Shown here in pieces: positions 7,354 to 62,226 of a stretch of 64,000 nt of DNA. Origin of the DNA: Naegleria gruberi. Its lineage: Eukaryota. How positions within the stretch are numbered: position 1 is the stretch's first letter; each line of letters starts with the position of its first letter. The translations under genes were made by a program, and so were the position numbers. Location: the NCBI GenBank assembly GCA_000004985.1, contig GG738857.1; one strand, given 5' to 3'. The notes under the pieces were generated by a model. That model did not search any database and was not told the DNA's origin. It worked only from the letters and a program-made list of their open reading frames with translations.

Positions 7354-7437
7354 CCTGAACAAAGGACTGATTCACTTGGAATATTTACTTAGTTTATCTT
7401 ATAAATAGTTCAATATTATGATTTTTGTATTGTGGTT

Positions 7438-7555
7438 GGCTACGGCCATATCACGATGAATGCACCTCATCCCGTCCGATTTGAGAAGTTAAGCATCGTC
7501 GAGCCACATCAGTACTGAGGTTGGAGACAACTTGGGAACCTGTGGTGCTGTAGTC
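7438..7555 (+). rRNA. 5S ribosomal RNA
   Basis: 118 nt matching the eukaryotic 5S pattern (GGCTACGGCCATATCAC...GAAGTTAAGC...AGTACTGAGGTTGGAGACAACTTGGGAA...GTGCTGTAGTC). The termini pair to form helix I. A T5 run (7556..7560) follows immediately, typical of a Pol III terminator. Confidence 0.85.
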
Positions 7556-7730
7556 TTTTTAGTGAGCTTTTTCAATTTCCTTTTGAACAATAATTCAATA
7601 GGACATTAATACAGTTGCTTAATAGTTTAAGCAAAGAGAGTATAATTTCCTGCGAAATAAGATTTATTGAACATTGTAGTTTTAATACTTTAATACGGAG
7701 AAAATCCCCTTAATTGTTTTTCAAAAAAAA

Positions 7731-13623: not shown

Positions 13624-15363
13624 TTAATCTACATTATTGAGCAACTCGTCCATCTTTCTCTTTTTTGATTGTGATTCCTCTTCGTCTTCTGATTCACTCG
13701 AATAATATTCAGCATATTCGCTATCAGAATCAAATACTTCATCAAACTCCTTAGTTTCCTCTCTGTATCGTTTTGGTTTTGGAATATCATATACTTCACT
13801 TCTTGTACCCCAATAATTAAACCAATCTTTGTATTCCCTCTCATCTAGTTCTTTTACAAGTTTTCTGAGTCTCCAATTTTGTTTCAATCTATTTGAGGCA
13901 TACTCAATGCTATAAGAATTATCCTTCACAGCCTCTGTAACAATTTCTAGATCATCCTTGAATGTATCAGATACATGCTGGAGTACAAATCCATTACCTT
14001 TAACAGTCTCCAAAATAAACTCTCTATCACTTTTCAACTCCTCTGGAATCTGCTGGAAAAGTGCTGAGTTTTTTTTGAGTGCATTCAATAGCATGTTTCT
14101 GTCAACATTACCAAAATCTTTCATTTTCTCTAAAATTAATGGAACATTTTCTCGTGATAAAAGTGTGGCCTTCTTAATGTCATCCTCTCTTTCCATAATA
14201 TATTCTATTGCATTGGTGTGAGTGGATGTTGTCATGGATAGAACTTCCCAGTCATTTTGTAAATCAGGATCAGCATACACAATAGCACTTCCATCATTGG
14301 AAACGGCTGCCAAAACAATTTCCTTATCTGCCTGAAGCTCTTCTGAGGCATATTCCAAAGATAGCCCACAATTTCTTACTGCATTCAATACAATTTCACG
14401 ATCATCTCCATAATCTTCCCAAATATAACTCAAAACTTCTCCATTTTCATTTACACATTCCAAAATGAAATCTCTATCCTGATATAGTTCATCACACGAA
14501 TATTGAATTGCATATGGAAAGGTTTTGATAGCTTCCAAAATGATTTCGTTGTCTCGGAGGAATTCATTGTTCACAAATTGAATAGCCTCTCCATTATTCT
14601 TTAGGGCAAGTAAAACCATTTCTCTGGTTTGATTCTCTGCATAAAACAACATTTCCCCACAATGTCTCACCATACGGCAGAAATCTTTTGTGTTCACATA
14701 AAATGGTTGTCGGAACTGCCAGTCATCCAATGGATTCTGACTATATTTTACAGATATTCTTTGCAGTTCGTCACTGGCATCTAGGTCCAGTTCAAAGATA
14801 TTTAGATCTGGATGCTCTTTTGTTAATCGTTTAAGAAAATCCATATTCGTTTGGTAATGCTGACCAGTCGCAAAAACTCCTGAATTCAAAGCCACGTACT
14901 TTCCCACACTTTGACTGATATAATATTCATCATTTTCCAAATAAGGATCATCAATACATGCAATTTCAAATAGCTCTGTACAAGCATGTCCACATGAATC
15001 CACAAATTGATAAGCTGATCCATCGTTCTTAATAGCTTCCTTACAAACATCATAAGTGACCAAACCATGATCTGAAACACAACTCAGAGCATACCCATTT
15101 TGTTTAACAGCTTCTAACAACAATCCATACTCTACAATTTCATCATCATTGAAATATTCCATTGCCATTCCATTGTGTTGTACAGCTTTTAAAGCAAGCT
15201 TCTCACGAAGATCATCGCTAGCCAAGTCAATCAATTCACAACAATACATGCCAGCCTTTAACATGAATTCTTCATCGGAGCCTAATATTTTCATCATTGA
15301 AGCTTCAATAGGAAAGTCAGAACAAACCGATGGATAATATTCCATGAGCCTCATGTTAATCAT
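13624..15363 (-). CDS. DUF4116-repeat protein
   Basis: 579-aa ORF built from repeated ~30-aa units of the DUF4116 type (ELQADKEIVLAAVSNDGSAIVYADPDLQND; ELKSDREFILETVKGNGFVLQHVSDTFKDD; LEIVTEAVKDNSYSIEYASNRLKQN), with an acidic C-terminal tail. The upstream ORF 15356..15562 (ATG in GAAAAAATG context) may be its true 5' end, but it lies in another frame. Confidence 0.7.
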   Translation of the reverse strand: MINMRLMEYYPSVCSDFPIEASMMKILGSDEEFMLKAGMYCCELIDLASDDLREKLALKAVQHNGMAMEYFNDDEIVEYGLLLEAVKQNGYALSCVSDHGLVTYDVCKEAIKNDGSAYQFVDSCGHACTELFEIACIDDPYLENDEYYISQSVGKYVALNSGVFATGQHYQTNMDFLKRLTKEHPDLNIFELDLDASDELQRISVKYSQNPLDDWQFRQPFYVNTKDFCRMVRHCGEMLFYAENQTREMVLLALKNNGEAIQFVNNEFLRDNEIILEAIKTFPYAIQYSCDELYQDRDFILECVNENGEVLSYIWEDYGDDREIVLNAVRNCGLSLEYASEELQADKEIVLAAVSNDGSAIVYADPDLQNDWEVLSMTTSTHTNAIEYIMEREDDIKKATLLSRENVPLILEKMKDFGNVDRNMLLNALKKNSALFQQIPEELKSDREFILETVKGNGFVLQHVSDTFKDDLEIVTEAVKDNSYSIEYASNRLKQNWRLRKLVKELDEREYKDWFNYWGTRSEVYDIPKPKRYREETKEFDEVFDSDSEYAEYYSSESEDEEESQSKKRKMDELLNNVD

Positions 15364-20706: not shown

Positions 20707-23079
20707 TTACATGAATTGAGAAAAAAATTCCTCAATATTATCCAACACCTTGTCAAAAGTAACCTCTTTGAGTTCTTTTAGTGGTTCAAGATGCGAGACA
20801 TCATGATCTGTACGCTTCTCCTCATCGTCTGTACACTTCTCTTTATCCTCTTTCTTGCCAGATCTAAAATAACAAAAAGGAGTCCAATAGAATATTTCAC
20901 CAGCAGCCTTTCCACAAATAACAATGTCCTCAAACCCACAAACGATAGCACAATAGTGGAAATCGTACTTTCCTTTCACATAGTATAAATTCTTTTCCTT
21001 ATATTCAAAATCGTAGACATCACCAATTCCATCTGAATAAAATCTCATAGAATCTTGCAGAGCACGATATTTCTGCGAAAATATTGAGTCTCTCTGGATT
21101 GATCTATATTCTGCAATGAGATCTAAAACAAAACCATACACTTGATCTTTGATTTTTGGATTTCTTGTTTCGGCTACATCTCCATACTGATGATGAGTTG
21201 TCGGTTCCTCATCTACCCAAAATATTGTAAGAGGATCAAGATCTTCAACATCCCCTATTTGTGCTGGTTCAATTGAAGCAGATAGAGTCTTTCTTCTTCT
21301 TGTTGGTATTTCAATATTTTCCCAAACAGATTGATTCATCACAGATTCACAAGGATTTTCATCCTTTCTAATATTAATGAGGTATCCTCTAAGAAATACA
21401 ATACACATTACAGAATTACACAATGACTCAAAACTTAGTTCCTCAAGTCCTGAGATGTGTTTTTGCACTGCATTTTGCACAAGACAATCATCAGAGCCAA
21501 AGCATTCTTTCTCAAATATATTTTCTGCTGGATCTAAAATATGAATCTTGAAGAATTCGTAGGGGTTTGTTGAATCACTATCTTTTTCAGGTCTAAAATG
21601 TACAAGTTTAAACGTTCCACCATTTGACTTTCTCAAGGTTACTATATAGGTTTGTTCTCCATCATTATCATAACATTTTCCTGAAATGAATTGATTTGCA
21701 ATATGTGGTAAACAGAATTTGGTTGCAATTTCAGAGGAAACAGAGAAAGAGGCCACCGATCTATAAGTTAAATCCATTACATATTTGGCCATATTTTCAG
21801 TGTGTTGAGAATCATCTCCAAATTTCATTAAATCAATTAAGGAATCAATTTGATGCGTTAATGGACACCAACGATAATCCACACCATCCCTTTCCTCACG
21901 AAATTTCTCATTTCCAAAATAACTAACAGGTGCACGAAGCTGCTGTTGCTGATTTTGATTATTATTCTTTTTCTTCTTTTTACCTGGTTGTTGATTGACT
22001 GGAGGGGGTGGAGGTGGAGGTGGTGGAAGAGGAGGGGGTGGTGGATTTTTAGCATACTCATAAGAACTCAGAATGCAATCCAAATAACGATCTATCTTCT
22101 TAACGCCTGCAATTCCTAACATTATTCTAAAGAATACCTCCATTTGAAAATTTCCCCTAATTGTAAACAATAAATTGTCAAAAGAGCTATCAAATATTCT
22201 TTTCTGCGAAATTTCAACCAATTTTTCCAATGAGGAATCGTTCAATTCCCTTGCCAAATAATAATGACCAACTCCCCTTGTTAATTTCACATTCTGATGC
22301 AAGACAACTGGCTCATTAGCGCATGTGAAAAATTTCACATGAATTGATGAATAAATATCTTCTTCCTCCTCTCGCTCATCATCACCACTATCCTCGTCCT
22401 CCGAATGATAATAATCATCCCTGCAACTTTTTAATCTGCTTTTAATCTGAGTTTTTTGGATTTAAATAAATCTTGAAGTCAAAAATTTGCTTGACTTTTT
22501 TGCAGATTTTTTTGTTTTGATTAAAGCTGAAAAAAAAAACGTTCGTATAATCTTTGCGAGTTAATAGGTGTTTTTTGGTTTTATTTGAAGCCTGCTTTAT
22601 GGATTTAATTAAATCTTGTTGNNNNNNNNNNNNNNNNNNNNNNNNNNNNNNNNNNNNNNNNNNNNNNNNNNCAATAAAATCCCAACACTTCAATCAATCC
22701 ACTCTTGAAATAAAAGTTATGAGCATTCAATGAATGACAATTCACCTTTCCCAATGTTTCCTCAATATCATGAATCATCAATGGATGACTAAATTCCACA
22801 CCTTGTGCAATATATAAATTACGTAAAAAACCATCAAGTCTATATAACATTGCCTTTGCTTGTTTGTTTTTATCATTCATTTCATGAACATTTGAAGAGG
22901 AAGAATAATAGGCATGGAGAATCTACATAGGAGAGAATTGTATCAAGTATTTGAATACATGATGATAATGTTGTGAAGAGTGAAAACTTTTCATGTTTAG
23001 ATTCAATTTTCTTCTTTTTGTTCTTTGATTCAAATTCACTTGTTGGATCATCAAAATCTTCAACAAGTCTTTTTAACAT
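20707..23079 (-). CDS. Hypothetical protein with poly-proline tract; multi-exon, structure unresolved because of an internal gap
   Basis: The large ORF 20707..22338 stays open upstream to ~22461 without an ATG (acidic ...DDYYHSEDEDSGDDEREEEED...). ORFs 22605..22880 and 22882..23079 (ATG 23079 in AAAAAAAATG context) are probably upstream exons. A 73-nt GT-AG intron candidate would link the last two. The N gap 22622..22671 interrupts the model. Confidence 0.45.
22622..22671. other. Assembly gap (50 N)
   Basis: Run of N in the sequence. Confidence 1.
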
Positions 23080-34162: not shown

Positions 34163-34303
34163 TATTTATTTTGATGGAATCATTCTTGAGAAGTGATACC
34201 ATCATTCCATTAGAGTGGGTCCAGTCTTTGTGCTATTCTTTGAATCCAAATTTTGAGGAGAAGGACAAATCAAATTGATAAAAATTCTACCATGGCATTC
34301 CTG

Positions 34304-34327
34304 TGTCAAAAGTGAATTGACGAGTCA
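34304..34327 (+). promoter_or_regulatory. Candidate promoter-proximal element: TGTCAAA plus the 16-mer GTGAATTGACGAGTCA
   Basis: The 16-mer at 34312..34327 is identical to 40505..40520. TGTCAAA at 34304..34310 recurs 25-80 nt upstream of four cluster ATGs. Confidence 0.4.
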
Positions 34328-34334
34328 ACAAAAA

Positions 34335-35500
34335 ATGCGTAAATCAACATCTGAAAAAACTCTTCCAGAAACAATCAACATAAAAAACCCATCCGAAGAT
34401 GAAAAATCCACTCTCCAACAACAAGATTGGTTTTGTGAATTAGTTTCAACCTACACAGAGCACAAGATAAACGCACTTGAGAAGGAAAATCAAAACCTAA
34501 TCCAAAAGTTGTTGGCTCTAACAGTTGATCAACGCTATATTAAATTTCTTGAATCTATTCCTTCATTGATGCAAAAACAACAAGAGCACAACAAACAAGG
34601 AAACTCTGACAATGAGTACAAAAAGTTAAACGAGAAGCTTGATGAAGTAATTGATGATTATGAGGACGTCAAGAGGAAATTAAAAAAAGCAGAAGAGAAT
34701 GCAAAAAAACCAAAGATGCTTTTGTTGAACAGCACTATTATAATGAAGAGAATATTAAAGAAATCACCAGGAAAGAAGAGAAGGTACGTGAAGAATTGGC
34801 TACCTTGAATGGAAAGTACCTTTATGAAAAGGAATCGTTCTTGAAACAAGTGTCCGAGTTAACAAAAGAAAGAGATCAACTAAATGATCAAATTTCAATT
34901 TACAAAACTCGAAATGATCCTGCCTTGCTGATGAATGACTTTTCTGATAACACAGTCAAAAAGATACATGATGAATATGTCACTTTGAAATCACACGATT
35001 TGAATTCTTTTGTGGGAAGAGTAGTTGAAGAACATTCATTAAGTGAAGATCAGGAATTTGATTTTGATTTAAAAATTGTTGCATTTGCATTCAAAACAGT
35101 CCGTAAACTCATTGAAGAAACCTATTCTGAAATGAATTTCGAACTAATTGGCAAGAAACTTACAAATGAAGAATCAGAAAGAAACCGCCTTATTGAAACC
35201 CTCGTCCAGACAATTGCAAAAATGGAAGAAATTGGAAAGAACAAGAAATTACAACAAGCTGCCAGAGAATTTATAACCAAACTCGTGAAATTCTATTGTA
35301 ACATGTTTCTCATTGATAAGAAGCTTGAATTGGTTTGGGCTTCAACTGGATCTCTCTACAATCCTGAATGGTACGATTCAAGAAATGCAACCAGTAACAT
35401 TGTAGTCACTAATGTTTTCAAACCTGCTCTCATGGACACATTCACCAAAACAGTCTACGAAAAAGGAATTGTTGAAACTACCCAAAAAAGGAAAAAATAA
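34335..35500 (+). CDS. Coiled-coil protein with conserved C-terminal domain (cluster family member 1); 1-nt frame break
   Basis: ATG 34335 (CAAAAAATG context). Frame A reads ...VKRKLKKAEENAKK, then frame B reads TKDAFVEQHYYNEENIKEITRKEEKVREEL... The switch is at the A7 run 34703..34709. The C-terminal domain begins 'KTRNDPALLMNDFSDNT' and ends '...LELVWASTGSLYNPEWYDSRNATSNIVVTNVFKPALMDTFTKTVYEKGIVET'. Confidence 0.65.
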
Positions 35501-35522: not shown

Positions 35523-38500
35523 TTATATTAAAACTCTCTTGTATGTAATTAAATATTCAGGATAGCATTGATTCCTATCATAGATAATATATTCATTGTA
35601 GGTGTGTTGTGATACCGACTTGGATCTTCCAATAACACTGTCATAAACTCTTCCATTTGAGTTTTCAATGACAGGTGGTCTTCTTTCATTTCTCATCTTT
35701 TCCCTTGTTTTGAAAACCATCTGACCTAACAGAACTCTACTGAGAAATATAAAACACTCACCATCCTTATTCGAAACACAATATTGATCACTCTTACTAC
35801 AGCAATCAGCAAAGTATATTCCAGCTCCAAACAAACCACTCAAAGCACTCAATCTTTCATCAAAGCCGTGTTCTGAAATGATTGACTTGACTACTTCTGT
35901 TGTTCCATGCCATAAATAAACTTCATTCACATTGGAATCTAATTCACACATTTCGTCAACAAAATCATTTCTAATTGGTATATCCATTACCTTCTTTTTA
36001 TCCTTATAGGAAATTAGGTGTTTCTTCTTTGATAGATACATTTCATAAAGTGATAAATTCTCAATTCTTTCCACTTTTAGAACTTGTAACTTGTTATATG
36101 GAAATGAATCTTTTTCATGGTTTCGTTTCTTTCCTAATGTAATTGTTACACATGTCTTATCCAATAAATCTTGAATATCCTCTTTTAATTCAGCGGTAAC
36201 ATCTATAATTGACATGTTATTTTGATTTGATTTCCAATAGGAAGGCTTTTGTTTCGTTTCCTTTCTTCTTGTCCCACGAAAGAATTCATGTCTTAATAAC
36301 TCAGATGCAGATAAAGTACAAATTTCTTCACGAATATTAATTGAGTCCATTAGCGTTTTCAAAAGAGATGAATATTCATCGAGTCGTTCCATTGACATGA
36401 TGTCAATTACCATTTTCACGAAACAAAACATTTCTTTCTGGAATGGTAATTTGTTTCCCTTTTCCTCTATTTTCACAACATTATCAAATCCATCCAATAT
36501 TAATTTAACTTGTTCATCTTCAATAATTTTCACATACACATTCGCAGCTCTAATATTTCCATGAACAAATGAATAGGTATGAAAATGATGAATGGCTGAA
36601 AGAATCTGAAACCAAATATCTTCCCATCCTGATCTAATGGATGAAAAATCTTTCAATGTTCCAATTGAGTAATATGGCATAACAATACAAAGTTTATCTT
36701 GACAAAGATAAAATCCAATTAATTCTGCAATATTTGAATGTTTGATTTTCTCTAGAATTTCAACTTGTTCAATTACCATTTCAATTTTATCCAATGAATA
36801 TTGTTTAACACGATAGAAAATATTCGAATTCTTATCAACTGCCTCAATAAGCATATAATTCAGAAATGCAGTTTCACTAATTGTAGTCAATTCCAAAGTG
36901 CTTACATCTTGAATTCCTATAATTTCTGATAGTAAATCATAGAATCCTGATCGATAGAGTGTAATTGATTTGTTTCGAATATCATTTCTGTTAATTTGAA
37001 GAGTTTCGAGTTCAGTTTCTTGTTCCATAATTTTTAGACAGGGCGCAGTTGATGTTGAGTTGTTTGTTTCCCACAATTTTTTCTCAATTTCAATTGATCT
37101 TTTGCGTGCTTCAATGTTCTCACTCATTAATTTGTAATTAATTCCATATTTAGAAATATCAAATTTAGAAATTATTGTTAAAGTTAATTGCATATTTTTA
37201 AATTCATTACAGATGGTAGTAATATTATTGATAAAATCAAGGCAATTATTTTTCATATCATCAATAAAGTAGCAATATCCTTTCAATTTCTTTTTCAATA
37301 AATGATACAATTCCAAATTTGGATTTTCTTTCAATAAGGAAAATAATTTTGAAATGGAATCTCCAATATCATTTGTATCATTGCTTATTTCTGAAAATTC
37401 AAGTGTTGAAATATTACTTGAAAAATTTGAAAGAAAATTTGCAACTCCACTCAATTGCTTATTACATGTATTAATCCATTTCTCCAAATTAGTCGAATAT
37501 TCTTCAAATGTTAATTCCAATTCTTCATAATTCGATATTTCATTACATGGAATTTCTTCTCCACCATTCAAAAATTCATTAATTTCTTTAGAAATTTCAC
37601 TCAAACTCTTTACAAATTCAATAAGAAAATTTCCATAATCACTTTTCTTAATTTGATTATTCATTGATTCATGGATTTGAAATTTGCTTCGAAATTCAAT
37701 TAAATCTTGAGGATTTTGTGATGAATAAATCGATTTTGAATTAATTTGGATAGGGCTGAGAAGATTCTTAATATCTGTAAACTTTTTCATGTCATATTCG
37801 TTAATTATGATATTTCTAATAAGTCTATCAGTGGTAAATCTTATAGTTTCCAATTGATTTTTCCTATTTTTGTATTCGAAACCTAATTGGGAAAGCTCTG
37901 TAAATATTGATGCAAAATGAATGAATTTAATTTCTATTGGAGATGTGCTAGTAGATGCTTGACTCACTTCTACATTAATTTCTTTTGTTTCCACATTAGT
38001 CTTATTTCTTTTTTCAGATTTCATTTCCTTTTGAATCGTTTTTATGGATTTCCCGCCACATTTCAATGCTATTGATATTTTGATATTAGGATGTTCTAAT
38101 AATAATTTTCACAATTTCAATTTTATCTCTTTCGCAAGCAACTTGCAAAGGTGTTTTAACCTTCCAAAATTGGTAAAATAAAAACTTGCAAATTAATACT
38201 TACCATCTTTAATCTTAAAACTCAATTAATTAAATATCAAACTTACATTCTGAATAATTCAATAAATGTATACTCATCATTAACAAGTTACTTACACCCT
38301 TATTAACATCCAATTCATTTGATTCCAATAATAATTTCACAATTTCAAGATGACCATCATAACATGCAATAAACAAACAAGTTTGTTCTGATTCTACACC
38401 ACAAAATGTCTTGAATAACAAGCTAATAAGTATTCATTTTGCTTCAAATCATACTTACTTCATTGACATTGACAAGTGACAGTAAATATTTGACAATCTC

Positions 38501-38782
38501 AACATTTCCACTTCTACAAGCATGATACAATGGAACCTAAACACATTTAACAATATATGATGATATAAAACCTACTCCGATTCTTGGATTTACCTTCTTT
38601 TCTTCTAACAAGTATTTTGTAATTCTTGTTGAATTATTAGAAATTGATTCTTCTAATAGAGTTTTGTTCGAAACAAGAGTTTTTGAAAAATCGGACAAGG
38701 ATTCAGCTAATGAAATGAATTGCTCTAAATTATCACTTGAAATTGACGAGATTACTTTCTTCTCAAGTTTCTTTTTCAACAT
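35523..38782 (-). CDS. Ankyrin-repeat / pseudokinase-like / PARP-catalytic-domain protein; 1-nt frame break
   Basis: Exons 38576..38782, 38459..38536, 38296..38409 and 35523..38160, with introns of 39, 49 and 135 nt. Ankyrin units: VPLYHACRSGNVEIVKYLL; TCLFIACYDGHLEIVKLLLESNELDVNKG; KTPLQVACERDKIEIVK|LLLEHPNI, where | marks the frame break at the T4 run 38106..38109. The kinase-like region lacks the catalytic Asp (HGNIRAAN where HRDxxxxN is expected, DGF where DFG is expected). The C-terminal PARP signature is H (LWHGT), Y (GAGIYFA), E (YNEYIIYD). Confidence 0.75.
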
Positions 38783-38800: not shown

Positions 38801-40432
38801 TTAATTCTTTTTTGACACTCTGACAATTACTTTTGCCTTCTCATAAATACTTCTCGATTGCAACTGCATTAGGGATGGAAAGACTGTGCACTGAATCTTT
38901 GGAATGGTTGTGTTATTTCTTGCATCTTGTTCGTATGGATTAAAATTGTCCTTTGCTTTATACCAAACGAATTCCAACTTTTTTGAATTGGTAAACATTT
39001 TCATGTAGAGTTCAATTGCCTTATCAAGTAATTCTGAGGTTAGATTACTAACTTCCCGATCTCTACAAATATGCTCAGGATTCTCAACTTTGAATTTGTT
39101 GAAAACGTGTTCAATGGAGGTGAAAATCTCATTGTGGCAGCTTTTGAGTAGTTTTTTCTTATCTGAATCTTCCAATGGCTTGCATCCATAACCTAATTTC
39201 TTGTCTTTCAATCTGTGTTGTAATGATTTGCCCTTATTGTCGTCTTGAGCTGGTGAAAAGAGGTATTTGGCTAATTCCATTTCAATTTCACATTCAAAAT
39301 CTTGTGCTACATCATCTCCATTAAGATTTTCACTCATTTCTTCACAAAGAGAACCCAATGAATTCTTAATTTCAAAATAAGCATCCTTAATTGACTTGGT
39401 GGTATTGTCGGAGAAATTGTTCATCTCAAGAGCTGGATCATGTTCTGCTTTGACAATTCTAAAATTATCTTCAAGTTGAGCAATCTTTGATTCTAAACCA
39501 TTTTTCAGTTCGATTAGTGCTTCTTTTTCTTTCTCAAATCTTGATTGGTTTTCACTTGCTTCGGTTCTCATTCTGTTTTTATCCTTTTCCAGATTTGAGA
39601 TTTTACTTTCAAGAGATTGAAGGTTTGCCTGGAGTTCAAGTGTGTCATTTTTAAGATCCTTATTATCACTTCTCAAATCTTCAAGCTTTTTGGTTGTATT
39701 TTTGTGGCTGTCTTGTTCAGTCTTCAACTTTTGTTTAGTTTCATCATGTTCACTTCTCAATTTGTTGAAATTCTTTTCTAAAGTGTCCTTTTCCTTCTTG
39801 AGATCTGTAAATTCTTTTTTCTTTGTATTCAATTCAGTAATCTTTTGATCTTTTTCACTAACCAATTGCTTTTCACGGTTCTGCAAATCATCATTTTCTT
39901 TCTTTAATTTCTTCTCATTATCTCTTGCTTCATTGCTTTCTTTGGTTAATTTTTTAATTCTTTCATCTTGATTTTGGGATTTTTCTAATGAGATTGATTT
40001 AAGGAATTCAACAAGTTTCTTATCAACTTGTACAGTGTCTAATATGTCTCTTAATCTGTCAACTTCCTTGGTATGCTTTTCTGACTCTTCCTGGATGTGG
40101 TTAACTTTGTTTTTTTCCTTATCAAGATTACTTTGGAGAATAGAAACTTGTTTTCTTTGACTCTCTAAATCTTGTTTAACCTTGTCAAGTTCGTGTTGGA
40201 GGATTTGTGCTACATTCTTTTCCTGGTCCCAATTACTTTGCAGATTGGAGGTTGTTAGCTTTTCTTTATTAAAGGCCTCTTCAATTGACTTGAGTTGAGT
40301 TTGAAGTTGTGAAATTCTTTTTTGATAATGGGAGGGATCTACTTCTTGTGTTGGGGGTGGAACATCACTTGTTGGTTGTTGTTGGGGTTTGATGGTGGAT
40401 GATGGTTTATTTGAATTGGATTCGTTTGTCAT
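38801..40432 (-). CDS. Coiled-coil protein with conserved C-terminal domain (cluster family member 2)
   Basis: I place the start at ATG 40432 (AAAAAAAATG context), not the track's non-ATG start at 40528. A long heptad-rich K/E/Q/L region is followed by 'KAEHDPALEMNNFSDNT...LEFVWYKAKDNFNPYEQDARNNTTIPKIQCTVFPSLMQLQSRSIYEKAKVIV'. Confidence 0.75.
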   Translation of the reverse strand: MTNESNSNKPSSTIKPQQQPTSDVPPPTQEVDPSHYQKRISQLQTQLKSIEEAFNKEKLTTSNLQSNWDQEKNVAQILQHELDKVKQDLESQRKQVSILQSNLDKEKNKVNHIQEESEKHTKEVDRLRDILDTVQVDKKLVEFLKSISLEKSQNQDERIKKLTKESNEARDNEKKLKKENDDLQNREKQLVSEKDQKITELNTKKKEFTDLKKEKDTLEKNFNKLRSEHDETKQKLKTEQDSHKNTTKKLEDLRSDNKDLKNDTLELQANLQSLESKISNLEKDKNRMRTEASENQSRFEKEKEALIELKNGLESKIAQLEDNFRIVKAEHDPALEMNNFSDNTTKSIKDAYFEIKNSLGSLCEEMSENLNGDDVAQDFECEIEMELAKYLFSPAQDDNKGKSLQHRLKDKKLGYGCKPLEDSDKKKLLKSCHNEIFTSIEHVFNKFKVENPEHICRDREVSNLTSELLDKAIELYMKMFTNSKKLEFVWYKAKDNFNPYEQDARNNTTIPKIQCTVFPSLMQLQSRSIYEKAKVIVRVSKKN

Positions 40433-40454
40433 TTTTTTTAAAGACGTACGAAAA

Positions 40455-40536
40455 TTTGACGAGTTGTAATGTAATTTTGAAACCTGCATTCCGTGTTCCG
40501 TTCTGTGAATTGACGAGTCATCATTCACTTGTCAAA
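40455..40536. promoter_or_regulatory. Divergent promoter with repeated TTGACGAGT / TGTCAAA motifs
   Basis: The 134-nt region between ATG 40432 (-) and ATG 40567 (+) contains TTGACGAGT at 40456..40464, GTGAATTGACGAGTCA at 40505..40520 and TGTCAAA at 40530..40536. Confidence 0.4.
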
Positions 40537-40566
40537 TGTTTAACTATCAAACAAATAATCAAAAAA

Positions 40567-41778
40567 ATGGGATTCTTTGGGTTTTTCAGTGATGACAATA
40601 AAGAAGAAATAAAGAAGGAGTTGAAGGCGGCAAAGGAACAAATTGAATACCAAAAGAAAGAGGTAGAAAGCCAGCGAAACAAAATTATAACATTAGAAAC
40701 AAATAACACCAATTTGCAAACTAGAAACACAACTTTACTCCAAGAATTTAAAATTTTAAACCCGAAACTTGAAAAATTAACACTTGAAAAACAAAATTGC
40801 GAATATATTTCCTCTCAATATCAAGCAAAAGCACAAGAATTGAACAAGAAATTACAAGAACTCGACAAGCAGTACAATTCCACTGTTCAAAATCTCAACA
40901 CTGAATTACAATCTTGTAAATTTCAATTCAATCAAGCAATCACTGAGTGGAAGCAAGAGAAGAACAAATTTGAATTAGAATTGAAAAGTGTAAAACAATC
41001 AAGAGATCAACAAATTTCTTATTCCACTCAATTACATTCAGCATTGACTGAAGAAAGAGAGAATTTCATAAACTTGTCCCAAACCAAAGAACAAGAAATT
41101 GAAAAGTTGAAAGCTGACATTATTTTAATCAAAGCTCAAAATGATCCAGCACTTGTTGTCAATGATTTCTCAGATGAAAGTCCTAAACAAATTAGAGATT
41201 TGTATCTTCAATCAAAATCAAGTATTGACACTTTGACAACAACCTTGGAAGACAATTTGACAGAAGATGAACAAGAACAATTGGAAATTATTATAGCCAA
41301 GACACTCTTTGAGAAATTAGAAGAGACTGTTATGAAATTTGTGTGTGAAACAAAACAAGTTGACAGCAGTGATAGAAAGCTCATTGGTGAATTATTGAAA
41401 TCAGATATTGAAATGAGAAAGCTTGTTATTTATCATACTTCAGTTGGATTAATGAATCAAATTAAGGAACAATTTGCCAGTTTTAGTAATTTTATTGAAA
41501 ATTGTAAAGATGAAGAAAGAATTCAAATTCAAAATGAAATTGACACAATGTCAACAAGTTCAATTTCAATGCTAGCAATGATCTTGAGAAATGAGCAAAA
41601 TATTGGTTTCGTTTGGTATAAACCAAAATCAGATTTCAATACTTTAGAACAAAGATCAAGAAATGCTGATAAGAAAATTGTAATTGATACTTGCATTTAT
41701 CCTTGTTTAATGTTGAAGGGATCAAGAAGTGTTTTTGAACAAGCAGTTGTTACAACAAAATTAACAAAACACAAATAA
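40567..41778 (+). CDS. Coiled-coil protein with conserved C-terminal domain (cluster family member 3)
   Basis: ATG 40567 (AAAAAAATG context). Coiled-coil N-terminal half, then 'KAQNDPALVVNDFSDES...IGFVWYKPKSDFNTLEQRSRNADKKIVIDTCIYPCLMLKGSRSVFEQAVVTT'. Confidence 0.75.
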   Translation: MGFFGFFSDDNKEEIKKELKAAKEQIEYQKKEVESQRNKIITLETNNTNLQTRNTTLLQEFKILNPKLEKLTLEKQNCEYISSQYQAKAQELNKKLQELDKQYNSTVQNLNTELQSCKFQFNQAITEWKQEKNKFELELKSVKQSRDQQISYSTQLHSALTEERENFINLSQTKEQEIEKLKADIILIKAQNDPALVVNDFSDESPKQIRDLYLQSKSSIDTLTTTLEDNLTEDEQEQLEIIIAKTLFEKLEETVMKFVCETKQVDSSDRKLIGELLKSDIEMRKLVIYHTSVGLMNQIKEQFASFSNFIENCKDEERIQIQNEIDTMSTSSISMLAMILRNEQNIGFVWYKPKSDFNTLEQRSRNADKKIVIDTCIYPCLMLKGSRSVFEQAVVTTKLTKHK

Positions 41779-53247: not shown

Positions 53248-54992
53248 ATGTCAGGTTTTTCATCACAATCTATTCAAGCATCACTTGTTAGACCATCCAA
53301 ATATAGACATTTAAATGGATTTGAAACTAAAAGTGAGAGATATGAAAATATTAATGTTGGTTATGGTCAAAAATTAAGTAATACATTAAAAACCAATGGT
53401 TCAATCTATGCATTACCATTTAATGTAACAGGTGGTACTTTATCATTTAAATATTTAAATGATTATGGTAGATGGGATGAAAAATTACAAAATTATGGAA
53501 TTATTAAGGCTCACAAGGGAAGATTATCAGATTTTGATATTTCCCCTTTTAGAAATAGAGATCATTTAGTAACTGTTTCTAATTCTGATAATATTATTAG
53601 ATATTGGAAATTACCTACAAATAATAATGATAATGATAATAATAGCAATGATATTTCTTCTTCTAATATTACTTCTACTAATACTTCCAATATAAATGGT
53701 AATAATACTATATATAGAACCTATGAAGAAATGGATTGTGATTTGGAATTAAATGATACAAATAATACAAAATCAACTATTAGTAGAATATCATTTAATC
53801 CACTTGTTGATAATTCACTTGTTAGTATTCAAGGAGATTTAATCCATTTTTGGGATGTTGAAAAAAAGAAAATTTTAAATTCAATTCAAAATTTACCAAA
53901 TCCATCAATTTCTAGTAAAACATTACCAACAGTTGAAAGTTTAGGATGGAATGAATATGGTAATTTATTTATATGTGGTACAAATGATCGTTCCATTAGA
54001 ATTTATGATATTAGATTATCTTCCAATTATAGTAATAATAATAATAATAATAATAATCAATCTAATAATCAACAAATATGTATAACTGAAGGACATTCAA
54101 GTATGAAACCATTTCAAACATTATATTGTGAAAATATGTATATATGTAGTGTTGGATTTTCTAAAAATGGAGGTAGAGAATTAGCCATGTATGATATTAG
54201 AAAAGATTTGAAATGTTTACAAAGAATTTCCATTGATAATGGTGGTTCAGTTTTAACACCATTTTATGATTCAGATATTAAATTACTATATTTAGTAGGT
54301 AGAGGAGATGGTAATATTAGATTTTATGAATTAGAAGGTGGTATTATGCATTATTTAAATGATTATAATTGTCAATCTACATCTGCATCTGTTGATTGGT
54401 TACCAAAATGGAAATTAAATGTTAATAATTTTGAATTGGCTAAATTTTTAAGATTAACAAATGAAAAAACAATTGAAACTCTTTCAATGAGAGTTTCTAG
54501 AAAATCAAATATTGAACAATATTTTCAAGAAGATATATTTCCAGATACTTGGAATGGTCAACCTATTTATAATAATACTAATCAATGGTTAAATACTATT
54601 ATTAATAATAATACTACTTCTATTAATAATAATACTATACAAAGTAATATTAATAATAGTAATGGTAATGGTAATGAAAATTTGAATGAAAATGAATTAT
54701 TACAAACTAGACCAACCATGTCATTAAAACCATCTGATAAAATATCTATCTATGATGTACCTATTAGTGAAGGTGGTAAAATTAGACCATCCACTACTAA
54801 TTTAAGTAAATTACATTCATCATCATCTTTAAATAGTATTGAAAATACTCCAACTACTACATTAGATACCCCAACTACTATTACAAATTATAATACAAAT
54901 GAACAAGTTGATGATGAATTTAAAGATTTAAATGAAAATCAACAATTTGATGACAATGAAGAAGAAGAAGAAGAATTAATTACCATTAATAC

Positions 54993-55023
<31 letters not shown>

Positions 55024-58000
55024 GAACATAATCATAATAATTTTAATGATTTAAATGATATAGATTCATTAATGTCACCAACAGAAGCAACTTCCAAATC
55101 CATTTCCATTGGATTAGTTTCTAGTTTAGGTAAAAATGTAGCACTTGCATCAGCTCATATTCCATGGTATAAAAGAATTACAATGGGAATGGGTTATTAT
55201 TTAGGAATGGCAATGTTTTTAATATTTAAATTTACATTCATTTCAATACCTGTTTGGGTTTATCGTAAATCTACTGGTTACACTCCTCCACCTATTAAGG
55301 AACGTTTCGAACAAGTACCTGTTATTAAGGTTATTAAGAAACCTTCAAGAAAAGTTTCATCAAATATCAATTCTTCTACAAGTGTTAAACGTAATATTGT
55401 TGGTGGTGGTGCTAATACTAATAATAATAATACTGATAATAATAATATAACACCTACTACACCAAATGATTATATTAAATCATCAGTATCTAATACATCA
55501 TTATCATTAACTCCACAAACTCCAAGTGGTAGCGGCAATAATTTAATCATTTCAGATCCACTTGCAAGTGAATCAAGTCGATTACTATCACGTGAATATG
55601 GTAGAATTATTATGGAAGAATATATTGGTAAATTAACTAAAGAAGATATATTTCCTAAAAGAGCACATGATAAAGATACCAATCTAAAACAAGTTCTTGA
55701 AATTGATGTAGTTGACTTGAAAAAAGGTCTCACTCATGTACTAATTTGGGTAAAAGGACGTAAAAAATCGAGAGCAACACTTGCACCACTTTATTGGACA
55801 AGTTTAAATCATAATGATTGTTTCATTTTGGATTGTGGTAAAATTTGTTACATTTACAATGGACAATATTCTAACAAATTATGTAGAGCTAAAGCATTAG
55901 ATATTTCACAAATGATTAAATATAAGGAAAGAGGTGGTGATTGTCAAGTTGTAATTATTGATGGTATTGATTATTCTAATAATGGAAATAATTCTAATAA
56001 TAATTCTAATAACAATGACATGACACCATTATATAAAAAACAAGTATTACAATTTTGGAAAGAATTAGGATTAACAAGTGAAAATGAATTTTGTGAATTA
56101 TTAAATATTCACTTTCCTAAAAAGGAAGATTCTAGTAGTAGTAGTAATAATAATGTATTAAACAGATTAAAATTAACAGATAAATCTAAATTTACATCAA
56201 AAGATGAATTAAATGATGATTTATATCAACAATTTAATGATTTAGGTCAAAGATTATATAAATTAAATTCAGAAATCTTTGAAGAACTTCCACTAAAAAT
56301 AGAATTAAATGAAACACAAGATGAATACATAGAAAGAATATCACCATATATGTTAAGTGTTATAAAATTAAATCAAATACCAGGTGGTGAAATTGTAAAT
56401 TTAAAAGAATTAGAAAATTTATTAAATAATGAAAAGAATTTAATTGATCCAAATAAGGTATCAGAAATTACACAACCATCACATCATGTTTTACATTCTG
56501 ATCAATGTTACATTTTTGAAAGTTTATTTACAAATGAAGTTTTCTTTTGGAGTGGAAAACAAAGTAATTTAAATATTAGAAAATGGGGAATTGCTATTGC
56601 TAAAAAATTAGCACAATATAGATCTTTAAATAATAATCCATTTTCATTGAAAAATCCAATTTTACAACGTTTTAAATCTATTTTAAATAATTCTATTAAT
56701 ATTACTATAAATGGAAGTAATTCTATAAATGGAAATCAATTACCTAATAATAGAAAATATTTATCATCCATTACACGTGTTATAGAAGAAGGTGAACATT
56801 CTATTTATAAACAAAAATTTAGTGATTATCCAGGAATGTTAATGATTCAAACACAATCACAAGAATCACGTGGAAATGTTGCAGAAAAAAAGAAACAATC
56901 AAAAATTAATTTTTTAGAATTATTAAAATCTAAAAATAATTTAAAAGAAGAATTAAAATCTAATTCACAAAAACAATTTATTGATCCAACTTTAGTAACT
57001 ACCATATATAGTAGTAAAATTAGAATGTGGAGAGTGAGTGATTTTCAAAAAATACCATATCAACATTTAGGTCATTTCTTTACAGGTGATGCATTTATTA
57101 TTTTATTTACCTATACAAAAATAGAAGGTGGTAAATCTTTCCATAAATTATTCTTTTGGCAAGGAAGAGATATTAAAAAGAAAGATAAAGGAACATCTGC
57201 ATATAAAACTGTTGAAATTAATGAAATGATTGATGAAGGTGTTGTAGAAAATCAAATTAGAGTTGTACAAGATAAGGAACCTAAACTATTTTTAGATTTA
57301 TTTAAATTTAACCCAAATAGTATGGAAGAGAGTACTACTATTGAAAATGATAAACATTATAAGAAGGTACCTTATTTTATTCATAAGGGTAAATATAGAC
57401 CTTCTGTTTTGGAATCTTTTGAAAAGGCTAACAAATTATCTTCTATTATTGGTAATATTTCTAATAATAATAATAATGGAAATATTAATCCAAAATCATC
57501 ACCATTACCAAAATTAAATATTTCTAATAATACAAATGATAATAATAATACAAATAATACCACTACAACTACACCAACAACACCTACAATTTCAAATGAT
57601 GAAGAAATGAATCTTGCACCTGTTAAATTATTTACTTCCATAAATGGAAATTTAGATGAAAATGAAAAATTTTCACCTCAAATTTTACAATTCCAAACAG
57701 AAATGATTGAAAGAATAATTTCTAAAAATATAAAATTAGAATATTTAAAATCCTATGATTTTAGAAATGGAATTTTATGTGAAACTGATGATTTACATCC
57801 AAATTATTTAAATCCATTTAATTTAATAATTTTTTCAAATTTAAATTTTAATGTTTATTTAAATAGAATTGAACTAAATAAGGAAATTGAACAAGATGAT
57901 TTAAAAACTATTATTTATTATGGAAAATATTGTAAAGAATCTGATAAGAAATTTATTGAAAATAATGTTTTAAATTTATTTAATAATAATAATATAATTA

Positions 58001-58908
58001 CTATAAATGGAAATAATCAAGAATTATTAGAAAATGTATTTACTAAGGAAATTGATCCAACATTTGAATATTTTATTTCTAGATTTAATAATTATTTAAA
58101 TACTTTTGAATTTAAAAATAATTATAATATTTCCTTTTATAATATTAATGATCATTCAGGTGAATTTACTTTAAATAGATTGGATCCATTTGGTGAAATT
58201 GATTTATCTTCTTCACAAGCCTTTATTTTAGATTGTCTTGATTTAGAAGGTAAAATCTATGTTTGGATTGGAATGTTATGTAATATTGAAACAAAGAAAT
58301 TTGCACTTTCAACTACCATTCAATATTACTATACATGGAAATCACAAACTTGTAATGATGAATTTTATAAGAAGAAACCTCAAAATGATGACATGGATGA
58401 TTTTGATCCAAGTAAATTTTTACAAAAATCAGATGAACAATCATTACTTGTCATTCAAGAAATGGAAGAACCACAAGAATTTACAAAACATTTCATTTCA
58501 TGGTCAATTAATTCAACTTCATTCAAAGTTAGATTTAAACAATTACAAGATCCAAATTTAATTTCAAAGGGTTTTGTTAAAACACCAAGAACTCCAAGAA
58601 GATCAAATATTAATGTTCAAATTTCTAAACATGAAAAGAATTTATTTGAACATTCTTCATCCATTTTTGAAATTGAACATTGTTCAAATGTTTTACAATT
58701 ATATAACAAATTATTTACTCACAAAACTTATAGTTATGCAATTTTAACAAGTGGTGCAAATATTCCAGAAGGTATTGATAAATCTAAATTAGAATCTTAT
58801 TTATCAAATGAAGAATTCCAAAAAGTATTTGGAATGGATAAAAAGAAATTTGCTACTTTACAAAATTGGAAACAAACCTCTTTGAAAAAGGAAAAGAATT
58901 TATTTTAA
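53248..58908 (+). CDS. Villidin-like giant: coronin-type WD40 N-terminus + gelsolin repeats + C-terminal villin headpiece
   Basis: Single 1886-aa ORF. Coronin-like start: RPSKYRHLNGFETKSERYENINV...NIIRYWKLP...IRIYDIRL. Gelsolin-type segments: LIWVKGRKKSRATLAPLYWTSLNHNDCFILDCGKICYIYNG; IRMWRVSDFQKIP...GDAFIILFTY...LFFWQGRD; AFILDCLDLEGKIYVWIG. Headpiece: LSNEEFQKVFGMDKKKFATLQNWKQTSLKKEKNLF. Long Asn/His/Thr low-complexity linkers are present. Confidence 0.85.
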
Positions 58909-58975: not shown

Positions 58976-61607
58976 TTAATAATTTGTACATCCATTTTCC
59001 TTCATGTACTTTTCTGCATCAAGTCTAGAAGTAAATGATTTAAATTTTGCTCCTTGAAATTGATCAACTTGAATTTTACATTCGTCCCACGTATTAAATA
59101 TACCTGTTCTTCTACCAATACAAACACAATATAATTTACCACTCTTTGACATTCCACTACTTCCACTTCCACTTCCACTACTACCATAACTTTTAGATGT
59201 ATTACTGTTACTGTTGGATGTTATTGCTCTTCCAGGATTAAGTTTTGATTTTTTCATAATTTGTGAATGATAAGATGTTCCACTCTGAGTAGAATTTGAA
59301 TCATTTTTACGTTTCTTTGTATTTCCACCACCACTTGTAAAATCTGATAAATCTAAATTTTGTAAAGTTTCTTCAAATATTTTTCTTCTCTTTTCAAAAG
59401 ATTCTTCATTCTTTTTTAATAAATTTTCAATAAATAAATCTTTTGAACTTGTATCTTGTGCTGAATATTGTTCTTGTTTTTTAAGTTTGTTATAAAAATC
59501 AATTGCTTCTCTATTTATATGTCTAGTTAAATTATATGAATTAAAATTTGTAACTTTTAAATATTTCATTGTTTTTGCACGTGATAATGCAACATAGATT
59601 TGACCTGGACTAAACACTGTTGATAAATCAATTACACATTTTTGTAATGTTAATCCTTGTGTTTTATGTACTGTCATGGCTATTATTATTAAATTTAAAA
59701 ATATAAAATATTAAATATTAAATATTAATATAAATTAAATATTAATATAAAAATATTAAATTATTAAATATTAAATTAAAAAACATACCATAAGCTAATT
59801 TTAAAGGAATTTGAATTCTAACACCTTTAGATTTTTTTGGACCATCTGTTTCAAAAATGGTAGGATGTACAATTTTAATAATTTTAATTTCCTTTCCATT
59901 TTCTTCTCTTGTAAAAACCACTTTTGGAAATAATTCACCATTTTCATTAATATATTGTTCAGCATATTGTTTAATATTCTTATTTGAACTTTGTAAATCA
60001 CTTGGTGTTTGTTTAATAAAACCAATAATTTCACCTCTTGTTCCATTCACTAATTGATTTGTAAAATCATTTTTAATTATCATTACTTGTGCTCCAATAC
60101 GTAAATTAATTTCCTGTGATGCATTAGATGAATTAAAATTTGTTAATATAGCACTTTTAATATATTCTTTAATAGTTGGATGATCTACTTTTGGATCATA
60201 ATCTCCATATGAAAAAAATGTTTGATCTCTATAAGTATATTGTGGTGGTGATAATTTTAATAATTCTGTATCATTCACTGTATCTACATTCTTATTTAAT
60301 GTATGAATAACTGTTGCCTTTTCAATTCCATCAAATTTATTATTTTCTAATCTTTTTAATGTTTGTACTATATTATTATTAGTTTGACAACATCTAATAG
60401 AATTTAATATTGATATCCATTCTTTTTCTTCCTGTCTAAATACATTACTCAATTCAAATGTATATTTAATTGTACGTTCCCAACATGTAGCTTTAAAACA
60501 CATTTCCTTTTTTTGATAAATAGTTTCACCATGTTCATTTTTAAATGATTTACTAACAGGTGGTAACTATAAATATATTTGATAGATTTTGAATAGATAT
60601 TGTAGTAGAATTATTATTATTAGATTAGATTAATGTGAATATGAATATTATATTTTGAGATTAAATTGAATGGTATTAGATTTGATTGGTGTGAATATGA
60701 TTGAAAATCATTAAAAAAAACAAACCTGTAAGAAATCACCACATAAAATAACTTGAATTCCACCAAATGCAGGTAATTGTTTCATAATAACTTCTTTAGG
60801 TGCTCTAGATGCAGCAATTTCAAAGAAACATCTAATTTCAGTTGCAATTGATTCTAATTGATCAAAATATTGACCATCAATCATTGAAATTTCATCAACA
60901 ATTAAAACATCAACACTTCTCCATTCTTTTTCATTTCTCCAAGCTGTTTTACTATCAACTTTACCATTATCCAATGTTCTAATACCTGCAAATGAGCTAA
61001 TTAATTTTTAAATAAAGTATTACAATATAATTACAATGTTAAATATAAGTATACTATAATAATTAGAAATATTTACATACTGTATAGTTGATCCACCAAT
61101 ATTAACAGCAGAAATACCAGTTGAAGCAGTCACCACAACTTTCTTTTGTTGAACATTTGATAAAGTTTGAATAATACATTCTAATAAGAAACTTTTACCA
61201 GTTCCAGCAACACCTGTAATAAAAACTGAATGTCCTTCCATTACACATTTCAAAACATTCATTTGTTCATCACTTAATTTTGATAACAAGCCTTGATAGG
61301 TATCACATTGATTTAAATCAAAACTAGCTAATTCGGGAAATATTGTTGAAGGTAATTCTTGTTGTTTACTTTTCAATTTCATATCATTTGCAAATGATGT
61401 AATTGATCCGAGTGTTTTTGGAGGTGCTTTAGTTGTTGTTGCTGTTGATGTTGTTGTACTATTACTAACACCAGTACTAAAGGAAGGCTTTTTAGATGCT
61501 GAAGCTTTCTTAATTTTAGGTGGTGCACCTCCTCCGGAAGAAGGCATTGATCTTGGTTTTGGCTTTGCATTTGCAGGTACAAATACTACTCCATTCTTTT
61601 CTAACAT
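58976..61607 (-). CDS. PIF1-family 5'-3' DNA helicase fused to a C-terminal RNase H1-type hybrid-binding domain (HBD / Cauli_VI-like)
   Basis: Exons 61081..61607, 60726..60996, 59789..60566 and 58976..59679, with introns of 84, 159 and 109 nt, all phase-consistent. Helicase motifs are restored across junctions: Walker A GVAGTGKS; GGSTI|H SFAGI; LIVDEISMI; LCGDFLQ|LPPV; LAY|AMTVHKTQGLTL; GQIYVALSRAK. The C-terminal 45 aa (LYCVCIGRRTGIFNTWDECKIQVDQFQGAKFKSFTSRLDAEKYM) match the HBD pattern. I place the start at ATG 61607. Confidence 0.8.
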
Positions 61608-62226
61608 TATGATGATGAATTTGTGTTCAAAGCCTTTGTTGAATGTTTGAAGGCTTTTTTTTTGATTCAAAGTGTTTTTAACGTTCTATTAAAAATTAGA
61701 ACATTTTGGCGGGTTGAACGATTCTTGAACTAAGACACTTCTCAATAGAATTTATTAACAGGTAACAATGTCGAAATAACTTTATGATTAAGGGCATCCT
61801 GCTAACTCCCACTGATTTAAAAAGTCAGACGAAATTCACTAAAGTGGTAGTAGCATTGAATAATAATAAATAATTTAATTTTAAAATTGTAAAACGAAAT
61901 GATTATTATTCAATAATATCTTCACTGTTGGAGCACAATTTCCAATAATAATGCGATCATCAATGTCATTGTCATTTCCTTTCACATCATAATCACAAAA
62001 AAATCACTGATTCAAATCTATTCAATTAGCCTTTGTATTTGACTCTACTATTGTTGTTTCTCTGATTTTAACGTTTGATTCTCTCCAACTCACCTCTATT
62101 GGAGCCTTCATAACTTATAATACTCAACAGCGCTCTCTTTCACGAAATATCACAACACCTCATCAATAATAATTCATTGAAAAAAAACAATTCTATTGTA
62201 TCATATATATATTGTAGAGCAAAGAG

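Follow-up and report, generated by a model that had tools for sequence, protein, structure and literature searches.

PARPs are defined by the modules attached to their catalytic domain. In tankyrase 1 and 2 (PARP5a and PARP5b, clade 4) these include about 24 ankyrin repeats in five clusters and a SAM polymerisation domain, together with a zinc-binding loop in the catalytic domain itself, while in PARP10, PARP12, PARP14 and PARP15 (clade 3) the catalytic Glu is replaced by I, L or Y and the enzymes add single units. Outside the PARPs, RNase L is built from 9 ankyrin repeats, a pseudokinase and a C-terminal KEN ribonuclease; its ankyrin repeats bind the activating ligand and pseudokinase-mediated dimerisation switches the effector on. 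Here, we describe a minus-strand locus in a 64,000-nt stretch of nuclear DNA of Naegleria gruberi (the window; contig GG738857.1, AT-rich, ~30% GC, with short introns), which we read, with a probability of roughly 0.6, as one gene for a protein composed of ankyrin repeats, a helical region, a pseudokinase and a PARP domain with the H-Y-E triad. This gene would be NAEGRDRAFT_47537 extended by three unannotated upstream exons. The surveys of Citarelli et al. (2010; PMC2964712) and Perina et al. (2014; PMC4245714) list many PARP modules and no kinase. The former describes six N. gruberi PARPs, NAEGRDRAFT_47537 not among them, and places two of these, 72525 and 80603, outside all six named PARP clades as H-Y-E proteins without N-terminal domains; the latter reports combinations of ankyrin repeats and PARP in N. 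gruberi among others and mentions no kinase fusion.

The core of the locus is a long open reading frame (ORF) of 847 codons at 35523..38066 (minus strand, as for all parts of the gene given below). Its residues 15-847 are 100% identical to the public 833-aa product of NAEGRDRAFT_47537 (XP_002679562 / EFC46818 / UniProt D2V8J6; P0001 below), which is named 'predicted protein' at NCBI and 'Poly [ADP-ribose] polymerase' in UniRef. The ATG of the public gene model lies at 38022..38024 and the stop codon of the ORF at 35523..35525, 22 nt from the stop of a convergent gene that ends at 35500. Neither a transcript nor a second copy of the gene was found in the collections searched, the 90%-identity cluster of P0001 having a single member, and exact-protein look-ups for P0001 and for its paralogue P0006 returned no contig records. 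Automatic database annotation already shows the pair of kinase and PARP in this protein. The original prediction, made from the letters of the DNA, had called ankyrin, long helical, kinase-like and PARP domains; all of its coordinates and motifs were located in the sequence, and the four domain calls are upheld by Pfam, searches of the PDB, Foldseek and AlphaFold.

The PARP catalytic domain with its PxxW segment covers ORF residues 608-847 (35526..36245). Pfam PARP (PF00644) matches residues 653-843 above its gathering score (E 2.4e-25). A sequence search of the PDB returned tankyrase-1/2 (E 1.3e-17), then PARP12, PARP15 and PARP10, and Foldseek against the PDB returned PARP10/PARP15 (E 3e-12, target TM 0.78-0.83). 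The H-Y-E triad, already pointed out in the original prediction, aligns residue for residue with tankyrase-2, so that H720 (35909..35907) in LWHGT (35915..35901), Y751 (35816..35814) in GIYFA (35822..35808) and E825 (35594..35592) in YNEYIIYD (35600..35577) match its HG, YFA and EY motifs; the aligned segments read WHG and FHG, GIYFA in both proteins, SKSDQY and SKSNQY, and NEYIIY and AEYVIY, respectively. Among 26 relatives, H720, G721, Y751 and K758 never vary, and E825 reaches at least 90% conservation. The domain starts with PSYWK (36245..36231), a PxxW segment whose P and W are the same in all of 46 relatives; judged by the PARP15 sequence, it resembles the start of the PARP10/14/15 catalytic fragments. 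Since every NAD-site residue checked is kept (HG, the Y of GIYFA, SKSxxY and the E of NEY), the donor site appears competent throughout and the domain is, judging from these residues, most likely an active ADP-ribosyltransferase.

Despite this resemblance, the product is not a tankyrase. The long, clustered ankyrin array of clade 4 (15-18 repeats or more), the SAM domain and the zinc loop are all missing: 3-4 ankyrin repeats stand against the ~24 of tankyrase, no SAM match was obtained at E<=1, and the zinc-binding loop is replaced by the shorter VSNKDGECFIF, without a Cys/His loop. Moreover, 330 aa of helices and a pseudokinase separate the ankyrin repeats from the PARP domain. Unlike PARP10, PARP12, PARP14 and PARP15, the protein keeps the catalytic Glu (E825) and lacks their macro, WWE and zinc-finger accessory domains; Pfam matches for SAM, WGR, PRD, WWE and macro domains were absent from both the long ORF and the spliced product. 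By sequence, 72525 (XP_002672366, P0006; PARP domain 48% identical) and 80603 are paralogues of the PARP domain in NAEGRDRAFT_47537, of the same subtype and with H-Y-E kept, but they are short gene models of 265 and 219 aa.

Upstream of the PARP domain, ORF residues ~385-600 (36267..36914) form a kinase-like domain. In Pfam, Pkinase (E 2e-10) and PK_Tyr_Ser-Thr (E 1.6e-10) match residues 409-523, both above their gathering scores; the PDB sequence search returned PAK4 (E 2.5e-09), the best entry being the kinase-dead mutant PAK4 D440N, and Foldseek returned PAK1/PAK4 (E 2e-11). Both the profile matches and the bilobal fold thus identify a eukaryotic protein kinase fold, as originally proposed. 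The motifs of this domain were compared by alignment with relatives, PAK4 and PKA. The catalytic loop, HCDIKPEN in the relatives, reads HGNIRAAN (36563..36540), and the metal-binding motif, GDFD in the relatives, reads DGFD (36494..36483). In addition to these two aspartates, whose loss had been noted before, ~25 residues of the activation segment with APE are deleted, the alphaF Asp (SDMYAFG in relatives) is replaced by E (KEMFCFV), the alphaH-I Arg (RPT in relatives) is lost and the alphaC Glu is apparently Gln, whereas the beta3 Lys is present as in the relatives. The GxGxxG loop is absent and the C-lobe is shortened in all members of the family described below. Without the two aspartates of catalysis and metal binding, and without the activation segment, this domain is predicted to be unable to phosphorylate, and the assignment as a pseudokinase is solid at the level of sequence motifs. 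In P0010, another member of the family, HGN arose independently.

The region between the ankyrin repeats and the pseudokinase is all-helical over ~330 aa (ORF residues 43-372, 36951..37940), with eight long helices at AlphaFold pLDDT values of 50-84. No Pfam family matches these residues at E<=0.1, and they align weakly with the equivalent region of the relatives in N. fowleri and N. lovaniensis. In the AlphaFold model, which was built with 26 relatives, the mean pLDDT is 74 and the kinase and PARP blocks mostly reach 76-96.

The original prediction had treated a kinase-like domain between ankyrin repeats and PARP as unusual. This holds for the ankyrin version, which was seen only here, but a kinase directly before a PARP domain proved to be the mark of a sizeable family across eukaryotes. 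A full HMMER scan of 1.84 billion representative proteins gave 60 matches at E<=1e-30, the best after the protein itself being N. lovaniensis C9374_000562 (P0003, 917 aa, helical-kinase-PARP), N. fowleri FDP41_002169 (P0152, 1105 aa, helical-kinase-PARP) and N. fowleri FDP41_002250 (P0005, 1353 aa, SNase-helical-kinase-PARP). A kinase HMM applied to the top PARP matches and their cluster members recovered 42 sequences, about 40 of them representatives within the top 150, and in every case checked the kinase lies directly N-terminal to PARP. The same order and spacing recur in P0003, P0005, P0152, P0008, P0010, P0013, P0015 and ~30 more. Among 46 long representatives, Pfam Pkinase was found in 19 (~40%), a UPF1/ZNFX1-like helicase in three, and DUF4116 arrays, WD40 and PDZ domains in two each. 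The sources span at least six lineages (Heterolobosea, prokinetoplastid, diplonemid, cryptophyte, amoebozoan, choanoflagellate and ancyromonad), with Apiculatamorpha (a prokinetoplastid), Rhynchopus (diplonemid), Hanusia (cryptophyte), Nolandella (Amoebozoa), Bicosta (choanoflagellate) and Ancyromonas as named examples and further members among MMETSP and metagenome sequences. This kinase-PARP fusion family, a kinase directly before a C-terminal, PxxW-initiated H-Y-E PARP domain, is defined in the present analysis and no published name for it was found; NAEGRDRAFT_47537 has the full arrangement. A search of the full-text literature for the fusion, the locus tag or the accession found no description, although a mention in the natural-history review of ADP-ribosyltransferases by Aravind and colleagues is possible.

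Within this family, NAEGRDRAFT_47537 is best read as the most divergent Naegleria paralogue, with a PARP domain of the tankyrase / PARP10-15 type, and as a lineage-specific, fast-evolving offshoot of an old lineage of kinase-PARP proteins. A rough neighbour-joining tree places the Naegleria PARP domains in a single clade, in which NAEGRDRAFT_47537 branches deepest; its PARP domain is 46-49% identical to those of the other Naegleria proteins, which share 49-69% among themselves. P0152, P0005 and P0003, all uncharacterised, have the same order of helical region, kinase and PxxW-PARP, H-Y-E, the same short kinase C-lobe and the same degenerate glycine loop. They differ in keeping HCD..N and DFD (and, in P0005 and P0152, APE), in a coiled-coil linker of ~75 aa between kinase and PARP that NAEGRDRAFT_47537 lacks, in having no ankyrin repeats and, for P0005, in the SNase domains. 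Many members have active-looking kinases, and kinase activity in the relatives is plausible from their motifs; the dead kinase and the ankyrin N-terminus are the features peculiar to NAEGRDRAFT_47537.

Some further observations concern the wider distribution of these domains. A tblastn search of IMG/VR found ten large viral contigs (L002..L011, 32-244 kb) with PARP domains 26-39% identical, the matches covering the PARP part of the query only. In the window, 13624..15363 (minus strand) encodes a 579-aa protein with six DUF4116 repeats (E 1.3e-84), a domain of which 24 copies make up the N-terminal part of P0008, the kinase-PARP protein of Apiculatamorpha. On an N. fowleri contig (ERZ2098899 NODE_869, L001), ORF fragments of an ADP-ribosylglycohydrolase (PF03747; 2431..4378, plus strand) lie directly upstream of, and on the same strand as, the kinase-PARP gene (4442..7763), a possible writer-eraser pair; neither an ADP-ribosylglycohydrolase nor a second PARP is present in the 64-kb N. 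gruberi window.

The ankyrin repeats are encoded upstream of the annotated start, in three exons that join the long exon through GT..AG introns of 39, 49 and 135 nt, all of phase 0. Exon 1 (38576..38782) begins with the ATG at 38782 and has 69 codons, the only Met being the first; it encodes an N-terminal helix and a degenerate first ankyrin-like repeat, is open with a codon-bias score of +0.39 in frame 0 only, and is modelled from the single sequence as one long helix of low confidence. Intron 1 (38537..38575), claimed in the original prediction as a 39-nt intron and found as such at 38575..38537 with GTAGGT...TTTAG borders, has 23% GC against 29-33% in the flanking exons, and its excision joins ...KKVNPRIG to VPLYHACRSGNVEIVKYLL, a canonical ankyrin junction. 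Exon 2 (38459..38536) encodes repeat 2 (VPLYHACRSGNVEIVKYLLSLVNVNE), recognised by Pfam Ank/Ank_2 on the spliced product, and is followed by intron 2 (38410..38458; GTAAGT...TTCAAG), the sole GT..AG pair found by hand that preserves the frame into exon 3. Exon 3 (38296..38409) encodes repeat 3 (QTCLFIACYDGHLEIVKLLLESNELDVNKG) and holds the best Ank stretch of the spliced model (residues 104-131, pLDDT 75-85); the unspliced ORF 38230..38421 in this region already matches Ank_2 at 1.1e-06 and Ank at 7.1e-06. Intron 3 (38161..38295; GTAAGT...TTGGAAG), with two more GTAAGT signals inside, is a predicted choice among several splice solutions. When all one- and two-intron solutions were enumerated, several stayed in frame; the simplest vary by 0-1 residue (DVNKG[-/N/M]VKTPL) and others insert up to ~29 residues, the domain architecture being the same whichever is taken. 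A micro-exon within intron 3 that would add IKDG occurs in none of the in-frame solutions. Repeat 4 is encoded at the start of exon 4 (38061..38160; KTPLQVACERDKIEIVK followed by LLLEHPNIKIS) and straddles a break in the reading frame.

The composition of the exons agrees with this model. The ankyrin exons score +0.16 to +0.52 bits per codon, compared with +0.28 for the main ORF, in frame 0 only except for exon 2 (+0.164 in frame 0 versus +0.155 in frame 1); all three frames of intron 3 score below zero, and the introns are poorer in GC. Of the GTAAGT hexamers on the minus strand of the window, 3/13 fall within 38150..38460, and two clear introns in the Hsp70-like and Arf-like genes (~42808 and ~28306) match intron 2 both in size (~45 nt) and in the GTAAGT donor. 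In all, the ankyrin part comprises three Pfam Ank stretches and 3-4 repeats, for which single-sequence AlphaFold of the corrected N-terminus gives helix-turn-helix pairs at 69-91 (exon 2, pLDDT ~73), 99-123 and 135-154, with pLDDT values of ~70-85 overall. Used as a query, the spliced N-terminus retrieved nothing beyond generic ankyrin proteins, with no more than 45% identity over more than a quarter of its length, and missed even P0001; the search therefore shows just that nothing identical surfaced, not that the ankyrin exons are unannotated. No annotation retrieved covers these exons, and the public model, starting at Met 38024, probably lacks ~165 N-terminal residues.

The frame break, located as originally described at 38106..38109, is an AAAA run. 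The ankyrin frame ends at the TAA at 38088 and the frame of the long ORF opens at 38108, immediately past a TGA, so that this run is the only site at which a 1-nt change joins the two frames. Once the three introns are spliced out and a single A is dropped, a product of 1011 aa is obtained in which Ank_2 (E 8.5e-22) and Ank (E 3.9e-17, in three stretches) are found. Uncorrected, repeat 4 (…EIVKIIIRTS*) matches Ank at profile positions 4-22 with 17.1 bits; in the corrected form (…EIVKLLLEHPNIKIS) the match extends over positions 4-28 and reaches 23.9 bits, which exceeds the gathering score. The modelled helix pair 135-154 crosses the AAAA junction (pLDDT 73-84). As repeat 4 runs on past the break in the other frame, we conclude that the ankyrin exons shared one frame with the long ORF at least until recently. 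The extra A would be either a mistake of the assembly or a real lesion that the sequenced strain acquired very recently. A scan of JGI metagenomes with an exact pattern allowing AAA or AAAA gave no match. The window stems from a draft scaffold, as shown by an N-run at ~22670..22620, an assembly gap that, among open frames of at least 70 codons, lies just upstream of the minus-strand ORF 20707..22338. If the lesion is real, translation from Met 38024 would still yield a helical-pseudokinase-PARP protein.

Taken together, the phase-0 introns of typical size with the local GTAAGT consensus, the coding-type bias of the ankyrin exons and the 7 bits gained by repeat 4 in the long-ORF frame are the grounds for reading a single gene; as the letters stand, the ankyrin part is not in the frame of the long ORF. 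Several points besides this frame break weigh against the extended gene. The public gene model leaves the ankyrin exons out, no orthologue of NAEGRDRAFT_47537 above 50% identity was found in ~15 billion proteins, and the kinase-PARP relatives among the top 150 matches have no ankyrin repeats (the lone weak ankyrin-like match, P0033, has no kinase), so that comparison cannot confirm the ankyrin link. The ankyrin ATG at 38782 lies 18 nt past the TAA (38803..38801) of the upstream gene on the same strand and in the same frame (…SKKN* KFSLKK MLKKK… when read across that TAA), where separate genes on one strand are elsewhere in the window at least ~140 nt apart. The promoter would therefore sit inside the neighbouring gene, and the two transcription units would overlap or be co-transcribed; the shared frame may be chance (1 in 3). 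As to function, the degenerate glycine loop of the pseudokinase also occurs in the active-looking kinases of the family, and PARP3 and PARP4 have H-Y-E yet transfer single units; poly- and mono-transfer by the PARP domain cannot be told apart from its sequence.

The frame break and the lack of ankyrin repeats in the kinase-PARP relatives would also fit two genes, the more so in a genome this compact, where tail-to-tail gaps are 10-70 nt. The first would encode an ankyrin-only protein of ~156 aa, from 38782 to the TAA at 38088, with the break being real and marking its end, and the second would be the annotated 833-aa gene from Met 38024. We consider this arrangement unlikely, since the stop and the next ATG would lie only 61 nt apart, against at least ~140 nt in the other same-strand gaps, and since the long frame, open from 38108, encodes LLLEHPNIKIS, the expected rest of repeat 4, with the gain in Ank score given above, which would be difficult to account for had the two frames never been joined. 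The frames could instead be joined with no edit to the DNA: enumeration shows that a GTGAAA..AG pair, defining an 85-nt intron from 38112 to 38028 (...ERDKIEI to EMKSEKRNK), and a few longer ones restore the frame. Its donor agrees with the local GTAAGT at only 3/6 positions, and the removed segment encodes the rest of repeat 4, which would be truncated and whose Pfam Ank match vanishes altogether, making this the most improbable of the alternatives.

A different explanation takes the break at face value and sees a decaying locus, in which duplication of a MIEAP-like gene 18 nt upstream removed the promoter region and was followed by the frameshift and by erosion of the kinase motifs, the product perhaps being no longer made or needed. 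In favour of decay are the frame break, the stop 18 nt before the ankyrin ATG, the three MIEAP-like paralogues around the gene, one of them itself frame-broken at an A7 run, the branch of the gene in the rough tree, which is the most divergent of its Naegleria clade, and the missing coiled-coil linker. Even so, a frame of 847 codons remains open in DNA of ~28% GC, the conserved PARP-site residues are all intact and codon bias is normal in every exon; loss of motifs with the fold kept is typical of working pseudokinases, and in a draft assembly with gaps the indel may be an error. On this balance decay appears rather unlikely, and the single ankyrin-helical-pseudokinase-PARP gene is retained as the preferred reading.

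For such a protein, the dead kinase may have been kept in a structural or regulatory role, positioning, dimerising or gating the PARP domain, and the 3-4 N-terminal ankyrin repeats may bind a partner or target, as in tankyrase. The layout recalls RNase L, in which ankyrin repeats, a pseudokinase and a C-terminal effector enzyme follow in the same order, with a ribonuclease as the effector, more ankyrin repeats and no long helical spacer; this likeness is an analogy of layout, with no evidence of common descent. A broader and speculative scheme would see the kinase-PARP proteins as eukaryote-wide, two-headed signalling enzymes that perform both phosphorylation and ADP-ribosylation from one polypeptide, with interchangeable N-terminal modules (ankyrin, WD40, DUF4116 arrays, SNase) as sensors and a role in protist stress or anti-parasite defence. 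PARPs with a UPF1/ZNFX1-like helicase in place of the kinase would fit it too, the N. gruberi paralogue would be a case in which the kinase turned into an RNase L-like regulatory switch, a ligand or partner on the ankyrin repeats inducing pseudokinase-mediated dimerisation and so switching ADP-ribosylation on, and the ADP-ribosylglycohydrolase encoded beside the homologue in N. fowleri would supply the corresponding eraser. In full, with sensors and defence role, this scheme is unlikely to hold.

The surroundings of the gene contain further features. Three paralogous coiled-coil genes lie around it, at 34275..35500 (plus strand), 38801..40528 (minus) and 40399..41778 (plus); all share the ending ...FVW(Y/A)...NP.E.D.RN, one weakly matches the C-terminal domain of MIEAP, the 'mitochondria-eating protein' (PF16026, E 3e-4, below the gathering score), and together they look like a local gene-family expansion. 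The first of them switches frame at an A7 run at ~34690..34710 (GCAAAAAAACC), where frame 0 reads ...EENAKKPKMLLL... with a stop ~30 codons on and the +2 frame continues ...KKTKDAFVEQHYYNEENIKEI...; two frame breaks at homopolymers less than 3.5 kb apart may point to poor sequence quality in this stretch or to damage in both genes. Farther away, 53248..58908 (plus) is an intron-less ORF of 1886 aa with a coronin-type N-terminus (DUF1899 and WD40), gelsolin repeats and a villin headpiece, apparently a villidin-like actin-binding giant. It is followed at 58976..61670 (minus) by three abutting ORFs with pieces of a Pif1 helicase and an RNase H1 N-terminal (Cauli_VI) domain; this most AT-rich part of the window (22-27% GC) may be a broken helicase gene of a Helitron-like or other mobile element. 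At 1554..3597 (minus), a phospholipase C (PLC) ORF (EF-hand, X and Y; 2215..3597) and a C2-domain ORF (1554..2210) lie 4 nt apart; they almost certainly belong to a single PLC-delta-like gene that is interrupted by a stop, an intron or an error.

The kinase-PARP arrangement recurs in distant eukaryotes, and the family appears to be undescribed. What NAEGRDRAFT_47537 adds is a predicted ankyrin N-terminus on a kinase-PARP protein, unique so far, and its annotation deserves a recheck at the frame break. The family is also of relevance to a pathogen, N. fowleri, whose homologues are uncharacterised. A dead kinase in N. gruberi next to live-looking ones in N. fowleri and N. lovaniensis provides natural material on what the kinase does for the PARP domain, and a tankyrase-like H-Y-E domain outside animals, with ankyrin repeats that would have been acquired independently, bears on the origin of tankyrase-type enzymes.

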